From Escherichia phage T5_ev219, in the sequence record NC_134263.1: DNA of 64,000 nucleotides. One strand, written 5' to 3'. Positions 7,905 to 27,458 of this stretch are shown here, in pieces. Each line of letters begins with the position of its first letter. Position 1 is the stretch's first letter. The position numbers were made by a program, and so were the translations under genes. The notes beneath the pieces are model-generated. The model did no database searches and was not told the DNA's origin. It was given only the letters and a program-made list of their open reading frames with translations.

Positions 7905-7977
7905 AAATAACACTCCTATAGTGTACTTCGCTAACAGAGGATCAACAAAAAGATCTTGTTTATCAACTTACAAATAT

Positions 7978-8006
7978 ATTATACCAATATATACAGTAAA
8001 AAGCAA
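7978..8006 (-). promoter_or_regulatory. sigma70-type early promoter for the minus-strand phoH-nrd operon (TTGCTT-17-TATAAT)
   Basis: Minus-strand TTGCTT (8001-8006), TATAAT (7978-7983). Confidence 0.6.
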
Positions 8007-8198
8007 CTACAATTTTAAATAAGCCTATGATATTGCATTTAAATAAAAAATTTGCTTGCTTTTAACGTGAGATGTGTGATACTAGATAATCATTTTATAT
8101 CGCGTGCACGAGTGCGTGATTATACAATTTTTAATAGAGATTGGCAAATAAAATTTTTTGACTCAGATCATGTTACAGAACTTTATAGTAAAATATTG

Positions 8199-8227
8199 TT
8201 GACATCCGCCCTCGAATGAGTTATAAT
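8199..8227 (+). promoter_or_regulatory. consensus sigma70 promoter for nrdD (TTGACA-17-TATAAT)
   Basis: Perfect -35 and -10 hexamers with 17-bp spacer, 30 nt upstream of nrdD ATG. Confidence 0.7.
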
Positions 8228-10138: not shown

Positions 10139-10171
10139 AGCCGGGTTGCTAGTCGACCTGGCTTTTATTTT
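10139..10171 (+). terminator. rho-independent terminator after nrdD
   Basis: Hairpin agccgggt / acctggct followed by TTTTATTTT. Confidence 0.6.
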
Positions 10172-10173
10172 AT

Positions 10174-10202
10174 TTGCTTTCAGCCAAAAATTTATATATA
10201 AT
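10174..10202 (+). promoter_or_regulatory. T5-type early promoter (TTGCTT-17-TATAAT) with conserved leader ending in GAGGAG
   Basis: Hexamers at 10174-10179 and 10197-10202. Confidence 0.7.
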
Positions 10203-10230
10203 AGATTTATAAATTTGAGAGGAGAAAGCT

Positions 10231-13260: not shown

Positions 13261-13302
13261 CTATGCTCAAAGACACTGATAGCACCATCCGGAAAATTTT
13301 AC

Positions 13303-13331
13303 TTGCAGGATGCCCAAAATCTTGATATAAT
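13303..13331 (+). promoter_or_regulatory. sigma70-type promoter (TTGCAG-17-TATAAT)
   Basis: Hexamers at 13303-13308 and 13326-13331; about 500 nt upstream of next ORF. Confidence 0.5.
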
Positions 13332-13828
13332 ATTTATATTGAATTGAGAGACATTAGTAAAAATTGATTTTGCTAATTTTTCTTGTTTACAATCCGCGAT
13401 ACGGAACAGTTAGGCTGCCCCATTAAGGGTTGTTTTAACTATTACTAGTGTTTATATTGCATTAGTTAATCTTCAATTAAGTGATCTGTGTACCCTGAAT
13501 TCGGAAAGGTAAATCCAAACCGTGCATATTTAGCTCGTTATATAGGCAGAGTTTTATATGGGGGTGCGAACGAAAAGAGCAGCGAATGGCGGCACGTACA
13601 GTAGTCACCTACCAATAGGATAGTGAGGACAAATAGAATCGGCTTAGCGGCCAATGACCTAGGTTCTATTCTGTATATGAGCGAAGAGAGCACAGCACTG
13701 AGATATGATAACTTATTCATATTGTTTGATGATAATTGATGTTTACGTAAATAGTAGTAATAGTTGTTCTATTCTTTCTGAATAGTCCTAAAGAAAAGAT
13801 TTCGATTAACCAACACAGGAGTATTGTT

Positions 13829-16618: not shown

Positions 16619-16835
16619 AAAATGGGAAACAAGGAAGTTTCCAGTAAAAGAACGTAAAGTTCCTGTTTATGATACTTCGGAAAAGCTATGTAGGGTGGTT
16701 CCGCACAGATTAGCTGGCATCCCTAACATATCCGAGTGGTTACTTAAACAACGGAGGACTAACGTATCTCTTCGCATAGGGTTTGAGTTAGATAAAGTAT
16801 ATGCTGAACTTTCTTCTTTGCTCAAGGAATCGTAA
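16602..16835 (+). CDS. hypothetical protein
   Basis: ORF track 16593-16835 (GTG); ATG at 16602 more likely; weak RBS. Confidence 0.35.
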   Translation: MTVKNKKWETRKFPVKERKVPVYDTSEKLCRVVPHRLAGIPNISEWLLKQRRTNVSLRIGFELDKVYAELSSLLKES

Positions 16836-16843
16836 AAATTTAT

Positions 16844-16872
16844 TTGCTTTCAGGAAAATTTTTCTGTATAAT
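16844..16872 (+). promoter_or_regulatory. T5-type early promoter (TTGCTT-17-TATAAT) with conserved leader
   Basis: Near-identical to the promoter at 10174-10202, leader included. Confidence 0.7.
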
Positions 16873-16903
16873 AGATTCATAAATTTGAGAGAGGAGTTTA
16901 AAT

Positions 16904-17608
16904 ATGGCTGGTTCTCGCAGAAAGAAACATATCCATGAAATCCCTGATGAAGTCTTTAAAAAAGTTATAGAGCATCTGGAGAACGGTGGTACTAAGAAAG
17001 CAGCATGTGAGATGCTCGGCGTATCATCCAATCCGACTATGGAAAGGATGATAGAAGAGTGGCAAGATCGCCAAATTCAGGTTGCCGAGATGAAGAAAAA
17101 GAAACGTGGTACACTCATTGAAGGTATTGAGTTGGCCAACGTTATTGAACAGTATCTATCTGGTGATTCTTTTGAAGAGATTGCCGATCGTAACTACCGC
17201 TCTGTAGCAATGGTTAAATCTGTTCTAGAACGATATGGTGCTCTACTTCGTTTGAACGATATTGTAGACCCCTTGAATCCTCCAATTATTCCTGACGATG
17301 CTGTAGCAGAAGAATTTGAGGTTGGAGAACTTGTTTGGGTTCCTGGATACCAGTGTATCGGTGAAATCAAAAAAGCAATGGATAACCCTGTTGGTTGTTA
17401 TCGAGTCTGGTTACTATCGGAAGGCAAACAACAGAACGTTCATTATATGAATTACGAGCTGGCTTCTGTTAAACATCTGGAAAAGTTAGGGGTTGACGTA
17501 AAATCTCTGGGGTACAAGTGGACTCGTGAAGAAGTTATTACGTTGATTAACGAAGCTGTTAAGGCTGCCTTGAAACTTGATAAAGAAAAAGGAAAACGCC
17601 GTGAGTAG
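16904..17608 (+). CDS. putative DNA-binding protein with two HTH motifs
   Basis: N-terminal HTH (GGTKKAACEMLGVSSNPTMERMI) and second HTH-like segment; GAGGAG RBS. Confidence 0.55.
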   Translation: MAGSRRKKHIHEIPDEVFKKVIEHLENGGTKKAACEMLGVSSNPTMERMIEEWQDRQIQVAEMKKKKRGTLIEGIELANVIEQYLSGDSFEEIADRNYRSVAMVKSVLERYGALLRLNDIVDPLNPPIIPDDAVAEEFEVGELVWVPGYQCIGEIKKAMDNPVGCYRVWLLSEGKQQNVHYMNYELASVKHLEKLGVDVKSLGYKWTREEVITLINEAVKAALKLDKEKGKRRE

Positions 17609-20260: not shown

Positions 20261-20289
20261 TTGCTAAATGCTTAAATACTTGCTATAAT
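20261..20289 (+). promoter_or_regulatory. sigma70-type promoter (TTGCTA-17-TATAAT) preceding the second ligase ORF
   Basis: Hexamers at 20261-20266 and 20284-20289. Confidence 0.6.
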
Positions 20290-21876: not shown

Positions 21877-21909
21877 AAGGGGAGGGGGCTATGCTCCTTC
21901 CCCTTTTTG
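21877..21909 (+). terminator. rho-independent terminator
   Basis: ggggagg...ccttcccc hairpin followed by TTTTT. Confidence 0.6.
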
Positions 21910-21941
21910 CATTTAGAAGGCACGAAAGCGTGCAAAGGAGA

Positions 21942-23414
21942 ATGACCTTGTTTAACGTGCAAGCTGTAGTGTTGAAGATGCTTCTAGCTTCAGAACAGAA
22001 GCAAATAGCATTGGAAACATTCTCAAAACTGCATAAAGATCATTTTAATGACGCTTTCTCCTCAATTTACCAAGCCGTCCAGAATTATTATAAAAAATAT
22101 AACACAATGCCGTCCATTGACGCACTGATGCTTGAGGCTAATAGGAACGCCCGCCTTTCTCAAGCTCTAGTCGTTTTAGCTAACACTCAAATTCCAGAAG
22201 TTAGCATGGAACAGGCACTTGAAGTCCTAGAGGCCGAGTATACACAGGATTTATTCCTGAAGCTTCTAGAAACAGACGTGCTTCAAGATTTAACAATGCT
22301 GGATCAGGGAGAAATTCTTAACCGAGTTGCCTCCCTTCACTTAAAATTAGAAGAGAAAGTAACGAATACTGGAAAAGTATTCAACGCAGATAACATGCGT
22401 ATTTTCCAGAGAGAAGAAGATACCAAACTGAACTTAATCGCTCTTGGTATTTGTAATGAGTTCGACGCTCAAATTGGTTTAGCTCGCACAGAAACGTTAC
22501 TGCTTGGTGGTTGGCGTGGTACTGGTAAATCCATTATCTGTTCAAACATACAGGTTCAGCAATATTTGAATGGAGATATTGCTCCATACTTCTCAATTGA
22601 GATGAAAGAACATGAAGTATTTAGACGTAATCTAGCCATGTTAGCTGGTGTATCAGCACTAGCAATGCGTAATAATACTCTAGAAGGTGCAGCTCTGTTG
22701 AGATTAGCCAGAACTAGAGCTAGGATGTTTAACGGTGGTGAAGAGCTTTTCGATAACTTCGTTAAACAGTACACAATGGCTAAGATGAGTGATTTCTACG
22801 ATATGGAAAGTAAGCTAATAGAAGGGTATGAACTACATACTCCTATGATTATTGTTTATGATCCTGAGCTGTCTATTACAACAGTTGACGTAGAATTAAA
22901 TAAATTAGTTGCTAGATATGGTGATAAAGTTACAGTAGCTTTACTTGACTATATTAACCAAACCCGACTTCCAGATTCTAAAACCATTGATATGTATGAC
23001 TGGAAAGAACAGATGGTTGTTAGCTCGTCTTTCAAATCTATCTGCCAGAAACATAACGTGGCTGGTGTAGCTCCTTACCAGATTGATCAAGATGGTAGAA
23101 CACGTATGTCAAAGGGGATTCTTGATTCCGCAGACATGGCTGCTAATCTTAATGCTGCAAAAGCTGATAATGGTCAAGGTGCTATTATGTTTGACTTCGT
23201 TAAGACTCGTTCTTCTGATAGTGTGAAGTTTATGCCTAAAATGAACTGGGAAACCCTACGGATGGATAACACTACCAACCTAGCAATGGAAGATATATCT
23301 CAAATGGAAGCTGAGTTCGTTATCCCTATTGAGAAGGATAAGCCGGCTCAATCTAAACGTGCTAAGAAAGACAAAGCTGAAAATTCAACAGGTGAACAGG
23401 CCAGCGATATATGA
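21942..23414 (+). CDS. DnaB-like replicative helicase
   Basis: Walker A GGWRGTGKS, RecA-like core; ORF track start 21891 lies inside the terminator hairpin, so ATG 21942 with AAGGAG RBS preferred. Confidence 0.7.
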   Translation: MTLFNVQAVVLKMLLASEQKQIALETFSKLHKDHFNDAFSSIYQAVQNYYKKYNTMPSIDALMLEANRNARLSQALVVLANTQIPEVSMEQALEVLEAEYTQDLFLKLLETDVLQDLTMLDQGEILNRVASLHLKLEEKVTNTGKVFNADNMRIFQREEDTKLNLIALGICNEFDAQIGLARTETLLLGGWRGTGKSIICSNIQVQQYLNGDIAPYFSIEMKEHEVFRRNLAMLAGVSALAMRNNTLEGAALLRLARTRARMFNGGEELFDNFVKQYTMAKMSDFYDMESKLIEGYELHTPMIIVYDPELSITTVDVELNKLVARYGDKVTVALLDYINQTRLPDSKTIDMYDWKEQMVVSSSFKSICQKHNVAGVAPYQIDQDGRTRMSKGILDSADMAANLNAAKADNGQGAIMFDFVKTRSSDSVKFMPKMNWETLRMDNTTNLAMEDISQMEAEFVIPIEKDKPAQSKRAKKDKAENSTGEQASDI

Positions 23415-23941
23415 TAACACAGGAACGACTAAAAGAACTGTTTGACTACTCCCCAGAGACTGGGGAGTTTACTAGAAAAGTATCTAGAGGCAATCAGAAA
23501 GCTGGTAGTATTGCGGGTACTCTAGATAGTGGATACATACGGATAAAGGTAGATAGAAAATTATACTTTGCACACCAACTAGCCTTCCTATATATGGAAG
23601 GATATATGCCAGAGGAAGTAGACCATATTAATCGAATTACTTGGGATAATAGATGGATTAATATTAGGCCATCCACCCGGCAAGAAAATAGCAGAAATAA
23701 AACAGCTAGAAGTAAATCTGGATACTTGGGAGTTTTCTGGTTTAAGCGGGATCACAAATGGCATGTAAGAGTAGTAAATTCTATGGGAGAAAAAGTTCAC
23801 GGTGGGCTCTTTAATTACGCAGATCTAAAGCTTGCAGTCACTAAAGCCAATGAACTACGTCTACAATTACATGGAGAAAATGCTGTTCAAGAGATCTTTG
23901 ATCCAACTAAGTATCCTTCACTGGAGGAGTTAAATTCATGA
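23411..23941 (+). CDS. HNH homing endonuclease (paralog of 810-1358)
   Basis: Colinear similarity with 810-1358 protein (FT.KVSRG...AH.LAFLYM...DH.NRI..DNRWINIR); sits between helicase and primase. Confidence 0.7.
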   Translation: MITQERLKELFDYSPETGEFTRKVSRGNQKAGSIAGTLDSGYIRIKVDRKLYFAHQLAFLYMEGYMPEEVDHINRITWDNRWINIRPSTRQENSRNKTARSKSGYLGVFWFKRDHKWHVRVVNSMGEKVHGGLFNYADLKLAVTKANELRLQLHGENAVQEIFDPTKYPSLEELNS

Positions 23942-24828
23942 GTAGAATAACAGAATTACTTGATCTTAAGGGAATTGAGTATAAAGATACTGGTGGAGAT
24001 ATTTTAATCTGTTGCTTAAATCCAGATCATGACGATAAACACCCAAGTTTGCGTATTGACCCTGAAACAGGTATTATGCACTGCTTGAGTTGTGGCTTCG
24101 GTAAAGGTATACCGAGCATTTACCATTATTTTAATGAGACTCAGTACCGACAGTCCCCAAGGCTATCGCAAGTACGTAAAAAGATTTCAGAGATTAGGAA
24201 TGGATCAACGAATCTTGCAATTCCTGAATCTGCTTGCCTTTTCGAAGGTGATTTCCGAGGTATAAGTTCTAAGACCTTGAAGAAATATTTTGCTTTCCAA
24301 CACCAAGCAGACTGGGAAGGCAGAATTGTATTCCCAATCACAGATGCTGTTGGACGCAATATCCTATTTTTGGGTCGTTCTATAAACAGTTCTGCCCCTC
24401 CTAAATACTTAGTAAAACCAAAACAAGTTTCACCGCCAATTTTTCCTGTACGATATAATACTCCAGTTCTTATTCTAGTTGAAGGCATCTTTGATATGCT
24501 GAACCTAGAGGATAATGGTATAGACTATACTTCTTGCTGCTTTGGTACACACCAGTTTACTTCGGATAACATTGCAGATAAGTTCAGTCCTTATATTATT
24601 GCCGGTGTAAAAGTTGTTGTTATCTTACTAGATAATGATGCTTCTGGTAATAAAGCTGCCCAGGCGCTAGCAAAATTAATTAGTACAAAAACGCGTTTAA
24701 CACCTGTAGTTGCTAACTTTCTTCTGCCTGAAGGTAAAGACCCTGGTGACTTAAATAAAGAAGAGATTGATATGTTAGCAAAACGTATTGAAATTTTAGT
24801 TGCTGAATCGCTTAAAGATTTGGTATAA
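23938..24828 (+). CDS. DNA primase (DnaG-like, Zn-finger + TOPRIM)
   Basis: Zn finger CLNPDHDDKHP...CLSCG; TOPRIM-like LVEG...DNDASG. Confidence 0.75.
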   Translation: MSRITELLDLKGIEYKDTGGDILICCLNPDHDDKHPSLRIDPETGIMHCLSCGFGKGIPSIYHYFNETQYRQSPRLSQVRKKISEIRNGSTNLAIPESACLFEGDFRGISSKTLKKYFAFQHQADWEGRIVFPITDAVGRNILFLGRSINSSAPPKYLVKPKQVSPPIFPVRYNTPVLILVEGIFDMLNLEDNGIDYTSCCFGTHQFTSDNIADKFSPYIIAGVKVVVILLDNDASGNKAAQALAKLISTKTRLTPVVANFLLPEGKDPGDLNKEEIDMLAKRIEILVAESLKDLV

Positions 24829-24829
24829 T
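24800..24829 (+). promoter_or_regulatory. sigma70-type promoter (TTGCTG-18-TATAAT) for the DNA polymerase gene
   Basis: Located in the 3' end of the primase gene; precedes a 9-bp stem leader hairpin. Confidence 0.5.
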
Positions 24830-24890
24830 ATATTGGTAAGTTAGAGAAGAAACACTGAAGTTATACTTACTTACCAAGAGGAGATTAAAT

Positions 24891-27458
24891 TTGAAAATCG
24901 CAGTAGTTGATAAAGCTCTAAATAACACTCGTTATGATAAACATTTCCAGCTATACGGCGAGGAAGTTGATGTATTCCATATGTGTAACGAGAAGTTATC
25001 CGGTCGTTTGCTCAAAAAGCATATTACTATCGGGACTCCGGAAAACCCATTTGACCCGAATGATTATGATTTTGTTATACTGGTAGGTGCCGAACCTTTT
25101 CTGTACTTCGCAGGTAAGAAAGGCATTGGTGACTATACTGGTAAACGCGTAGAGCATAATGGATATGCTAACTGGATTGCTAGTATCAGCCCAGCCCAGT
25201 TACACTTTAAGCCTGAAATGAAACCAGTTTTTGATGCAACAGTAGAGAGTATCCACGATATTATCAATGGTCGTGAGAAGGTTGCAAAAGCTGGTGATTA
25301 CCGTCCTATTACTGACCCTGACGAGGCGGAAGAATATATCAAGATGGTGTATAATATGGTTATCGGACCTGTCGCATTTGACTCCGAAACCTCAGCACTA
25401 TACTGTCGAGATGGTTATCTGCTTGGTGTTTCTATGTCTCACCAAGAGTATCAGGGTGTATATATCGATTCTGATTGTCTCACAGAAGTTGCAGTATATT
25501 ATCTCCAGAAAATTCTGGATAGTGAAAACCACACTATTGTTTTTCACAACTTGAAGTTTGATATGCACTTTTATAAGTACCATCTGGGACTTACTTTTGA
25601 TAAAGCACATAAAGAACGCAGGCTCCATGATACCATGTTGCAGCACTATGTTCTAGATGAACGTCGTGGTACTCATGGCTTGAAATCTCTAGCAATGAAG
25701 TATACCGATATGGGTGACTATGACTTCGAACTAGATAAGTTCAAAGATGATTACTGCAAAGCACATAAAATCAAGAAAGAAGATTTCACCTATGATTTAA
25801 TTCCGTTTGATATTATGTGGCCTTACGCTGCGAAAGATACAGATGCTACCATACGTTTACACAACTTCTTCTTACCAAAAATTGAGAAGAATGAAAAACT
25901 TTGTAGTCTGTACTATGATGTTTTGATGCCTGGTTGCGTATTCTTGCAACGTGTTGAGGATCGTGGAGTACCTATCTCTATTGATCGTTTGAAAGAAGCT
26001 CAGTATCAGTTAACTCATAACCTGAATAAAGCCCGTGAGAAACTGTATACTTATCCAGAAGTTAAACAGCTAGAACAAGATCAGAATGAAGCATTTAACC
26101 CGAACTCTGTTAAACAACTTCGTGTTCTTCTGTTCGATTATGTTGGTTTGACTCCAACTGGTAAGTTAACGGATACTGGTGCAGATTCTACAAACGCAGA
26201 AGCTCTGAATGAACTGGCTACGCAGCATCCAATTGCTAAAACTCTGCTAGAGATTCGTAAGCTGACTAAGCTAATCTCTACTTATGTTGAGAAGATTCTT
26301 CTGAGTATTGATGCGGATGGTTGCATTCGTACTGGTTTTCATGAACATATGACTACTTCTGGTCGTCTGAGTTCTTCTGGTAAACTGAACCTGCAACAGT
26401 TACCTCGTGATGAATCTATCATTAAGGGTTGTGTAGTTGCACCACCTGGATACCGTGTAATCGCATGGGACTTAACAACTGCGGAAGTTTATTATGCTGC
26501 TGTTCTATCTGGTGATAGAAATATGCAACAAGTATTTATCAACATGAGAAATGAACCTGATAAATACCCTGACTTCCACTCTAACATCGCCCACATGGTA
26601 TTTAAATTGCAATGTGAACCTCGTGATGTTAAGAAGCTGTTCCCAGCTCTACGTCAGGCAGCTAAGGCAATTACCTTTGGTATTTTGTATGGTTCTGGCC
26701 CGGCTAAAGTAGCACATTCTGTTAACGAAGCATTGCTCGAACAAGCATCCAAAACTGGTGAACCGTTTGTTGAATGTACTGTTGCAGATGCTAAAGAGTA
26801 CATTGAGACTTACTTTAGTCAATTCCCACAGCTTAAGCGTTGGATTGATAAGTGCCACGATCAGATCAAGAATCATGGATTTATCTATAGTCACTTTGGT
26901 CGCAAACGTCGTCTACATAATATCCACTCCGAGGACCGTGGCGTTCAGGGTGAAGAAATTCGTTCTGGATTTAACGCAATCATTCAGTCTGCTTCTTCTG
27001 ATAGTCTCCTTTTAGGTGCTGTAGATGCAGATAATGAGATCATTTCTCTTGGCCTAGAACAAGAGATGAAGATTGTTATGCTGGTTCATGACTCCGTAGT
27101 TGCTATTGTTCGTGAGGATTTGATCGACCAATACAATGAAATTCTGATTCGTAATATTCAGAAAGACCGTGGTATCAGTATTCCTGGCTGTCCAATTGGT
27201 ATTGATTCAGATTCTGAAGCTGGAGGTTCTCGTGACTATTCTTGTGGTAAGATGAAGAAACAGCACCCATCAATCGCTTGTATTGATGATGACGAATATA
27301 CTCGTTACGTTAAAGAAATGCTACTTGACGCAGAGTTCGAGTATAAGAAACTAGCTGCAATGGATAAAGAGCATCCAGATCATAGCAAATACAAGGATGA
27401 TAAGTTTATTGCTGTATGCAAAGATCTGGATAACGTGAAAAGGATTCTCGGTGCTTAA
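24891..27458 (+). CDS. DNA polymerase, family A with 3'-5' exonuclease domain
   Basis: 855 aa; exo motif FDSET; pol motifs RQAAKAITFGILYG and VHDS; TTG start with AAGAGGAG RBS. Confidence 0.95.
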   Translation: MKIAVVDKALNNTRYDKHFQLYGEEVDVFHMCNEKLSGRLLKKHITIGTPENPFDPNDYDFVILVGAEPFLYFAGKKGIGDYTGKRVEHNGYANWIASISPAQLHFKPEMKPVFDATVESIHDIINGREKVAKAGDYRPITDPDEAEEYIKMVYNMVIGPVAFDSETSALYCRDGYLLGVSMSHQEYQGVYIDSDCLTEVAVYYLQKILDSENHTIVFHNLKFDMHFYKYHLGLTFDKAHKERRLHDTMLQHYVLDERRGTHGLKSLAMKYTDMGDYDFELDKFKDDYCKAHKIKKEDFTYDLIPFDIMWPYAAKDTDATIRLHNFFLPKIEKNEKLCSLYYDVLMPGCVFLQRVEDRGVPISIDRLKEAQYQLTHNLNKAREKLYTYPEVKQLEQDQNEAFNPNSVKQLRVLLFDYVGLTPTGKLTDTGADSTNAEALNELATQHPIAKTLLEIRKLTKLISTYVEKILLSIDADGCIRTGFHEHMTTSGRLSSSGKLNLQQLPRDESIIKGCVVAPPGYRVIAWDLTTAEVYYAAVLSGDRNMQQVFINMRNEPDKYPDFHSNIAHMVFKLQCEPRDVKKLFPALRQAAKAITFGILYGSGPAKVAHSVNEALLEQASKTGEPFVECTVADAKEYIETYFSQFPQLKRWIDKCHDQIKNHGFIYSHFGRKRRLHNIHSEDRGVQGEEIRSGFNAIIQSASSDSLLLGAVDADNEIISLGLEQEMKIVMLVHDSVVAIVREDLIDQYNEILIRNIQKDRGISIPGCPIGIDSDSEAGGSRDYSCGKMKKQHPSIACIDDDEYTRYVKEMLLDAEFEYKKLAAMDKEHPDHSKYKDDKFIAVCKDLDNVKRILGA

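Follow-up and report, generated by a model that had tools for sequence, protein, structure and literature searches.

The mRNA leader of the DNA polymerase gene in the DNA analyzed here, a stretch of 64,000 nt (the window) from a T5-like phage (Tequintavirus), appears to fold into a cis-acting RNA stem-loop, some 45 nt long, in which three helices, P1, P2, and P3, are stacked. The hairpin noted in this leader by a first-pass annotation is shown by its conservation and covariation to be a selected RNA structure, and the existence of such a structure on the sense strand can be considered well supported. Its best explanation, to which we assign a probability of roughly 40%, is that of a protective leader structure, placed both at the 5′ end of one transcript and between the cistrons of another, that presents the RBS; effects on mRNA stability as well as on translation would be expected.

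The hairpin is located between the primase stop codon and the Shine-Dalgarno (SD) sequence and TTG start of an 855-aa family-A DNA polymerase. The genes and signals of the region are the following:

21891-23414: helicase gene
23411-23941: HNH endonuclease gene (HNH confirmed by Pfam)
23938-24828, + strand: primase gene (Toprim and CHC2 zinc ribbon by Pfam), whose 3′ end holds the polymerase promoter Ppol and which is the source of the read-through RNA with the full stem
24790-24805, + strand: A/T-rich block (gaaattttag) and −35 element TTGCTG (24800-24805) of Ppol, within the 3′ end of the primase gene
24821-24829, + strand: extended −10 element TGgTATAAT, enclosing the primase stop codon TAA (24826-24828)
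24830-24836, + strand: discriminator ATATT (24830-24834) and expected transcription start, G24835 or G24836
24833-24841, + strand: 5′ arm of P1, UUGGUAAGU, with the core GGUAAGU (24835-24841) in the Ppol transcript and UU (24833-24834) in read-through RNA only
24844-24868, + strand: apical part of the hairpin, as in the MFE structure and found again de novo by RNAalifold
24844-24846 with 24866-24868, + strand: P2, a short inner helix (GAG with CUU; RNAfold)
24844-24852, + strand: purine-rich, SD-like tract GAGAAGAAA
24851-24853 with 24860-24862, + strand: P3 (AAC with GUU; RNAfold), reaching 5 bp in relatives
24854-24859, + strand: hexaloop ACUGAA (RNAfold)
24869-24877, + strand: 3′ arm of P1, ACUUACCAA, with A replaced by G at 24869 (U-A to U-G) in five lineages
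24876-24883, + strand: SD sequence AAGAGGAG, unpaired, with its core GAGGAG (24878-24883) directly adjoining the stem and the TTG 7 nt further on
24891-27458, + strand: DNA polymerase gene (855 aa, family A with 3′-5′ exonuclease, TTG start)

The polymerase matches DNA_pol_A (PF00476, 9e-67) and DNA_pol_A_exo1 (PF01612) in Pfam, and the RBS and TTG start proposed for it are confirmed by an N-terminus, MKIAVVDK, that is kept across the family (12 lineages). Older or automatic annotations (M24354.1, MZ501058.1) use downstream ATGs, which gives 829 aa in M24354 and 825 aa in DaisyDussoix (window position 24891 versus 24981). An ATG occupies the same codon in phages of Klebsiella, Pantoea, and others, and Providencia phage PSTCR5 has a TTG three codons upstream. 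At the polymerase start of the T5-like metagenome contig CYGL01000004.1 (L153, at about position 2150) the sequence is aaatttAgaaaatcgc, in which the TTG is lost to an additional base, probably through an error of assembly; otherwise the start would be a variant one. A small ORF or alternative start in the leader was rejected, as there is no in-frame ATG, GTG, or TTG between the in-frame stop at 24837 and 24891.

The stem is a perfect 9-bp inverted repeat whose arms are 27 nt apart (ttggtaagt at 24833-24841, acttaccaa at 24869-24877), exactly as first described, and folding of the leader by RNAfold returned it as both the MFE and the centroid structure, at −10.7 kcal/mol. Two details of its placement had to be corrected: it does not end 1 nt before the RBS, since AAGAGGAG (24876-24883) shares its first two A's with the end of the stem, and it does not lie just downstream of the promoter, since it begins only 4 nt past the TATAAT at 24824-24829 and thus overlaps the transcription start. 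Taken alone, from one genome, the stem is not beyond chance and proves nothing. Its folding z-score is −1.46 in the 71-nt leader, with 17 of 200 shuffles folding equally well, and −0.26 in a 171-nt context, and the window has 30 perfect stems of at least 9 bp whose loops measure 3-40 nt, versus 10.9 ± 3.2 in dinucleotide shuffles. Thermodynamic significance was therefore rejected as evidence (z = −1.46; 9-bp stems are common by chance), and the significance of the hairpin comes from conservation and covariation, not from single-genome folding. A cmscan search of 24500-25200 against Rfam 15 (E up to 10) yielded no relevant match, the only hit being a chance snoRNA match elsewhere in the stretch.

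A 700-nt query around the hairpin matches 439 phage genomes, the best being Escherichia phage chee24 (97%). Among 29 distinct T5/Epseptimavirus sequences the hairpin has a pi of 0.0046, with three singleton changes in 45 columns, versus a pi of 0.167 and 57% of variable columns at third-codon positions in the primase and polymerase genes on either side; purifying selection on the hairpin is thus strong. The 61-nt leader is identical in 199 of 526 phage-collection records and 95-99% identical in 235 more; the rows inspected of these 526 records contain no annotation of the leader beyond the RBS. In the Epseptimavirus loci sampled there are two leader changes, at 24878 and 24885, both outside the hairpin.

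In phages of the DaisyDussoix type (Escherichia phage DaisyDussoix, L055:843-1217) a 390-bp insert with a 109-aa ORF, which has no Pfam match, begins right after the primase-embedded TATAAT, at the 3′ edge of the Ppol −10 hexamer, and ends in a TTTGCT...TGATATAAT of its own, in exactly the same register before ATATTGGTAAGT. The same junction is present in Stp1, PK8, JLBYU43, SA001, and two metagenome contigs (L150 and L153). As the insert restores the register, the hairpin remains linked to the polymerase gene and immediately behind a −10 element; the arrangement suggests that the cassette is exchanged by recombination between T5 promoter sequences.

The order of extended −10, hairpin, 0-5 nt, and SD is also found in more distant relatives: Yersinia phiR201, Serratia Kamaji, Klebsiella Sugarland-like phages, Pantoea AAS21, Erwinia KEY, Providencia PSTCR5, Proteus PM135, and phage Eos, whose polymerases, where measured, are 60-80% identical in their first 300 residues to that of the window. 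The stem of each lineage starts 2-8 nt past the −10 hexamer, which puts a start at +6 to +8 within the stem or no more than 2 nt ahead of it, and AGGAG or GGAG follows 0-5 nt past the stem. Covariation was assessed in 14 distinct leaders from about nine independent lineages; Pectobacterium phages My1 and DU_PP_V, which carry a different small hairpin (GCC..GGC) that the covariance model does not detect, were left out of the counts. In the 14-sequence alignment, which is model-guided and leans towards the model, 91.9% of the cells are paired, versus at most 51.3% with slid partners; six pairs (13 cells) are changed on both sides, and the covariation score was reached by none of 500 shuffles. 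The arms CUGUAAGU/GCUUACAG of Eos (uCUGUAAGU/GCUUACAGa) replace UUGGUAAGU/ACUUACCAA with two outer pairs changed on both sides, and those of PM135 are GUUGGAU/AUCCAAC. P3 is closed by C-G in nine sequences and by U-A in five; at 24841:24869 nine sequences have U-A and five have U-G, and Serratia phage Kamaji has U-G at 24837:24873.

RNAalifold run on a plain MAFFT alignment predicted the P1 core, P2, and P3 again, and a covariance model built without PM135 or Eos recovered both (E of about 1e-4 and 1e-14, respectively); in the window the model finds a single site. The invariant columns include unpaired loop and junction bases (AG.AG.AA.A...GA..UU.UACU). A loop-pattern scan of IMG/VR and the metagenome collection retrieved the known lineages and one Pantoea-like variant (L174), almost all of the metagenome matches being due to chance. 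The Pectobacterium phages have their different small hairpin at the same place, and at this place the hairpin is absent from Aeromonas AhSzw-1, Vibrio D36, and several metagenomic relatives. By these sequence comparisons, a hairpin that begins at or just before the start of the polymerase promoter transcript is widespread, though not universal, in Demerecviridae, and its form differs by subfamily.

The promoter predicted upstream of the hairpin is real: NC_005859 carries an annotation for it, and primer extension revealed transcripts of Ppol in infected cells (PMC7472727). In window coordinates the NC_005859 promoter feature spans 24781-24855, which equals −55 to +20 if +1 is 24836, and a putative promoter is annotated at this position also in Salmonella phage S114. 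With a spacer of 18 nt between the −35 and −10 elements, Ppol shares the aaattttAnTTGCT layout with other T5-type promoters in the window, and its −10 is kept as TGnTATAAT in most related phages; a consensus scan passed it over, since TTGCTG agrees with TTGACA at no more than three of six positions. According to Klimuk et al., ATATT is present in the discriminator of all T5 early promoters (PMC7472727). As TATAAT is followed here by ATATT-GG, and Ppol is active in vivo, transcription most probably starts at G24835 or G24836; a literature search retrieved no transcriptome paper that maps T5 transcription start sites. By geometry and the literature, the primary start is predicted to lie within the stem or at most about 4 unpaired nt away from it.

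With its start inside the 5′ arm, Ppol RNA would open as 5′-(G)GUAAGU...ACUUAC(C), a hairpin of 6-7 bp without a 5′ tail. The full 9-bp stem envisaged earlier for this transcript is therefore incomplete, as the two outermost U-A pairs cannot form and need read-through RNA. Such RNA from upstream is plausible: the nearest T5-type promoter on that side is at 20261-20289, a terminator-like hairpin comes after it at 21877-21905, and from there to Ppol there is no strong promoter. That hairpin (+ strand, between D5 and the helicase gene) is strong, with 13 pairs, 8 of them G-C, and is followed by TTTGCATTT; the annotated helicase ATG at 21891 falls in its loop. This start may be masked by the structure or tied to termination, unless translation of the helicase really begins further downstream.

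The 5′ half of the hairpin resembles the initial transcribed regions of other T5 promoters, such as 8222(+), CTTAGTTAGAGAAGGAG, and 7983(−), ATATTTGTAAGTTGA. A minus-strand promoter at 7940-8020 has a −10, discriminator, and initial transcribed sequence identical to those of Ppol (TGGTATAATATATTTGTAAGTTGA) without the complementary 3′ arm, which indicates that GTAAGTT also stands by itself as a promoter-proximal motif. The 5′ half, GUAAGUUAGAGAAG, is likewise similar to ordinary T5 leaders in which the purine tract is the SD, namely CTTAGTTAGAGAAGGAGAGTATAATG at 8222(+) and a PN25-like leader at 16867, and a perfect AGGAGG is present at the purine tract of Proteus phage PM135. On this basis the hairpin may derive from a standard promoter-leader cassette to which a complementary 3′ arm and a new SD were added. 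The leaders TATAAT-AGATTC-ATAAATTTGAGAGAGGAG at 16830-16905 (+) and 10160-10225 (+) presumably match the classical PN25-type promoter of T5 that is used in expression vectors, in which case well-studied strong promoters lie in the window. Another T5-type promoter, at 13298-13390 (+) (acTTGCAg...TGATATAAT, the latter at 13326-13331), is followed after about 25 nt by a 10-bp hairpin, ATTAGTAAAA/TTTTGCTAAT, and a T-run, and looks like a promoter and terminator unit for a very short RNA or like an attenuator.

Could the repeat be a DNA-level element, with the RNA hairpin incidental? It would then be an operator at +1 for a DNA-binding regulator (e.g., the early-shutoff protein D5), nothing but the downstream region of the promoter, or a part of a replication origin. 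The repeat does cover the discriminator as well as +1 of Ppol, an early promoter whose activity is shut off in vivo (PMC7472727), and the resemblance of its 5′ half to the regions at 8222(+) and 7983(−) points the same way. The pattern of substitution is against it: the changes from U-A to U-G are tolerated in the sense RNA only, as the other strand would have A-C mismatches, and thus argue for selection on sense RNA, not on DNA or antisense RNA. In addition, the half-sites are 36 bp apart, center to center, the inner helices P2 and P3 co-vary as well, and the 3′ arm and the SD-proximal part lie past +20. A purely DNA-level role is, on balance, very improbable.

The protective, RBS-presenting reading starts from the two kinds of transcript. 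Those of Ppol would carry a stem of 6-7 bp at their 5′ end with no single-stranded tail, read-through transcripts from the helicase-primase region would carry the full 9-bp stem, and in both the hairpin would end at the 5′ edge of a single-stranded SD. It is the base-paired start of the mRNA that defines the geometry of 5′-terminal stabilizers against 5′-end-dependent decay, and the geometry of the 5′ stabilizing hairpin offered as one possibility by the first-pass annotation fits, since a Ppol transcript that begins, as expected, at G24835 or G24836 has the stem at its very 5′ end; the idea is plausible. In Ppol RNA the stem would hide the 5′ end from RppH- and RNase E-type decay that depends on it. 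In read-through RNA it would block 5′-to-3′ access, whether by decay or by scanning, from the primase cistron, and the polymerase cistron would thereby be insulated from decay begun upstream. By locking up the pyrimidine-rich 3′ arm, which could otherwise pair near the RBS, the stem would also keep the SD and the TTG open.

Partition-function folding bears on this last step: the SD comes out unpaired with a probability of 0.80-0.89 in Ppol RNA, 0.52-0.58 in read-through RNAs, and 0.49 in an in silico mutant of the 5′ arm, in which access to the SD is lower because the freed 3′ arm pairs nearby. Sequestration of the SD by the hairpin was rejected, as the SD is unpaired with a probability of 0.8-0.9; at 0.80-0.89 the hairpin by itself does not sequester the RBS.

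Several observations speak against the protective reading. The sequences of the loop and of the inner helices are conserved beyond the needs of a simple stem, which suggests recognition by a factor, and the outer P1 pairs that co-vary (24833-24835 with 24875-24877) lie upstream of or at the expected start; selection therefore acts on read-through RNA too, and not just on a 5′-terminal cap. The stem is weak, with −4.9 kcal/mol and a P1 pair probability of about 0.58 when folded from +1 at 24836. Moreover, the 5′ half partly resembles the generic T5 initial transcribed region, so its conservation may reflect a constraint at the level of the promoter, and Ppol transcripts are gone within about 10 min in vivo (PMC7472727), which documents no striking stability.

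The selection seen in read-through RNA also lends itself to another explanation, a processing signal for an endonuclease such as RNase III, as in the early region of T7. Cutting of the helicase-primase-polymerase read-through RNA at the hairpin would uncouple the cistrons and leave defined, structured ends. In line with this, the complete 9-bp P1, including the pairs upstream of the Ppol start, co-varies, so that the structure matters in read-through RNA; P1, P2, and P3 stack to about 15-19 bp-equivalents with internal loops; and the hairpin sits exactly at the intercistronic junction. The stacked, irregular hairpin is reminiscent of the R-sites of T7. A site of the RNase III type has roughly two helical turns of dsRNA, which may be interrupted; here P1 has 9 bp, P2 has 3 bp, and P3 has 3-5 bp, with bulges between them. 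Yet such short, AU-rich, interrupted helices are marginal for RNase III. The covariance model finds no similar hairpins at other junctions, and a literature search turned up no report of T5 mRNA being processed by RNase III. Processing is accordingly a rather improbable function of the hairpin.

The counterpart in Vibrio phages raises the question of termination. Thalassavirus-type Vibrio phages keep the TGATATAAT promoter, and 3 nt further on they have a 13-bp stem and a U-run, called by a terminator scan. In Vibrio phage Chester (L059:1394-1465), and likewise at L064:1378-1452 and in L035-L038, TTGCAA-17-TGATATAAT is thus followed by a 13-bp intrinsic terminator. As it lies only 3 nt past the promoter, the expected start falls inside the 5′ arm of the terminator. 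From its sequence, such an overlapping promoter/terminator module is unusual and a candidate for an insulator, an attenuator, or a source of short RNA. The T5 hairpin could accordingly be a degenerate terminator or attenuator, descended from or functionally related to the Vibrio one, that would pause or partly terminate RNA polymerase coming from the primase gene and so insulate Ppol from upstream transcription. The homologous promoter and the intrinsic terminator are at the same place, the Vibrio 5′ arm shares GGUAA.U..GGAGAAG with T5, and the arrangement is kept between two Vibrio lineages with unrelated stems (GAGGUAAU... versus AGGGUGACU...). Against such a function, the T5-type hairpin has no U-tract (CCAAGAGGAG comes next), an AU-rich stem, and a 27-nt apical region, and its adjacency to the SD and the conservation of its apex would be left unexplained. 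An intrinsic terminator at the hairpin itself was rejected, as a scan of 23800-25300 was negative and GAGGAGAUUAAA, not a U-run, stands next to the stem. Descent from or kinship with a terminator seems an improbable account of the hairpin.

The conservation of the apex is what a translational operator would explain. In that case the polymerase itself, as for T4 gene 43, or another early protein would bind the conserved apex (P2/P3, ACUGAA, and the purine tract), and a protein sitting on a hairpin that abuts the SD would block 30S binding and limit polymerase synthesis. The unpaired loop and junction bases are indeed conserved across lineages, and the whole 45 nt is near-invariant in T5-like phages. 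The base of the hairpin lies 11-16 nt before the start codon in all cases, flush with the SD, which is the layout of RBS-overlapping operators (PMC3014915). The stem reaches into AAGAGGAG by two A's only, at its 5′ end, and leaves the SD core unpaired, yet the core might still be covered by a bound protein.

Autoregulation of the T4 gp43 kind, as suggested in the first-pass annotation, is not borne out, as the polymerase belongs to family A, the hairpin is one of 45 nt with the loop ACUGAA, and the SD is unpaired. The T4/RB69 gene 43 operator is a hairpin of 16-18 nt with a UAAC loop; hairpins of this type have loops of the UAAC or UAAA kind about 40 nt upstream of the start, and the operator extends over the RBS (PMC3014915). 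The gp43-type operator goes with a family-B polymerase, and Pfam identifies the T5 enzyme as DNA_pol_A; instead of a 16-18-nt hairpin with a UAAC or UAAA loop there are 45 nt, three helices, and ACUGAA. The failure of polymerase family, hairpin size, and loop lowers the case for a gp43 operator more than that for something that works like one. Against an operator of any kind, this family-A enzyme is unrelated to gp43, and the size and loop of the hairpin are unlike those of the gp43 operator (PMC3014915). A part of the 5′-half conservation is explained by the initial transcribed region of the promoter, and several members of the family have no hairpin here. Searches with the covariance model, the loop motif, and the arm pattern found the motif in the polymerase leader only, with no second copy in the 64-kb window, and there is therefore no regulon. 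We consider an operator unlikely.

A bolder proposal, which we regard as distinctly unlikely, sees in the hairpin a riboregulator of a family-A phage replicase. Its apex, with the SD-like purine tract and ACUGAA, would be bound by the T5 polymerase or another early protein, or would serve as a ribosome standby or decoy site, and would thereby set the dosage of polymerase, the Vibrio counterpart having been converted to a promoter-overlapping terminator. If this were true, T5-like phages would gain their first described cis-regulatory RNA, and control in the style of gp43 would have been invented a second time, independently.

T5 is a classical model phage, whose polymerase and promoters are widely used laboratory tools, and its post-transcriptional control is essentially unexplored. 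The hairpin is new, having no Rfam family and no annotation in the rows inspected, and belongs to a kind already known, the structured 5′ leader or leader stem-loop; as this type is familiar, the surprise for specialists should be moderate. Nevertheless, a 45-nt element supported by covariation and fixed across hundreds of genomes, between an early promoter detected in vivo and the RBS of the replicase, is a well-defined and easily mutated target for asking how T5 sets the level of its replicase. It also bears on the insulation of neighboring transcription units by overlapping promoter/hairpin modules, a question sharpened by the terminator version in Vibrio phages.

One known system for comparison is the T5 promoter itself, with its "downstream sequence region" of the Bujard laboratory, +1 to +20. 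The 5′ arm of the hairpin and the first bases of the loop are initial transcribed sequence like that of other T5 promoters, but the downstream sequence region does not account for the complementary 3′ arm, the covariation, or the conservation past +20. The terminator of the Vibrio phages (Chester, Ceto, and others) shares with the T5 element the end of the primase gene, TGnTATAAT, a stem 2-4 nt further on, the polymerase gene behind it, and GGUAA in the 5′ arm. It has features of its own in the 13-bp stem, the tetraloop, the U-run, and about 45 nt more of leader, whereas the T5 hairpin has no U-run, has a long structured apex, and abuts the SD. As for the T4/RB69 gene 43 operator, both are hairpins in the leader of a replicative polymerase gene of a phage and adjoin or overlap the RBS; they differ in that the T5 enzyme is of family A and not B, and no sequence similarity was found. 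The RNase III hairpins of the T7 early region are likewise irregular intercistronic hairpins of about 45-60 nt in a polycistronic early phage transcript, but the helices of T5 are shorter, and the T5 hairpin is a single occurrence and not one of a set of sites.

The stem-loop hp1 in the ompA 5′ UTR is reportedly a 5′-terminal mRNA stabilizer of E. coli, as described by Emory, Bouvet & Belasco in 1992. The T5 hairpin departs from this type in its conserved apex, in a stem that extends and co-varies upstream of the start, and in the weakness of that stem, at about −5 to −11 kcal/mol. It has in common with it a stem no more than about 2 nt from the predicted primary 5′ end, located upstream of an accessible SD, and the stem is a modest one in which the helix co-varies and has no sequence requirement.
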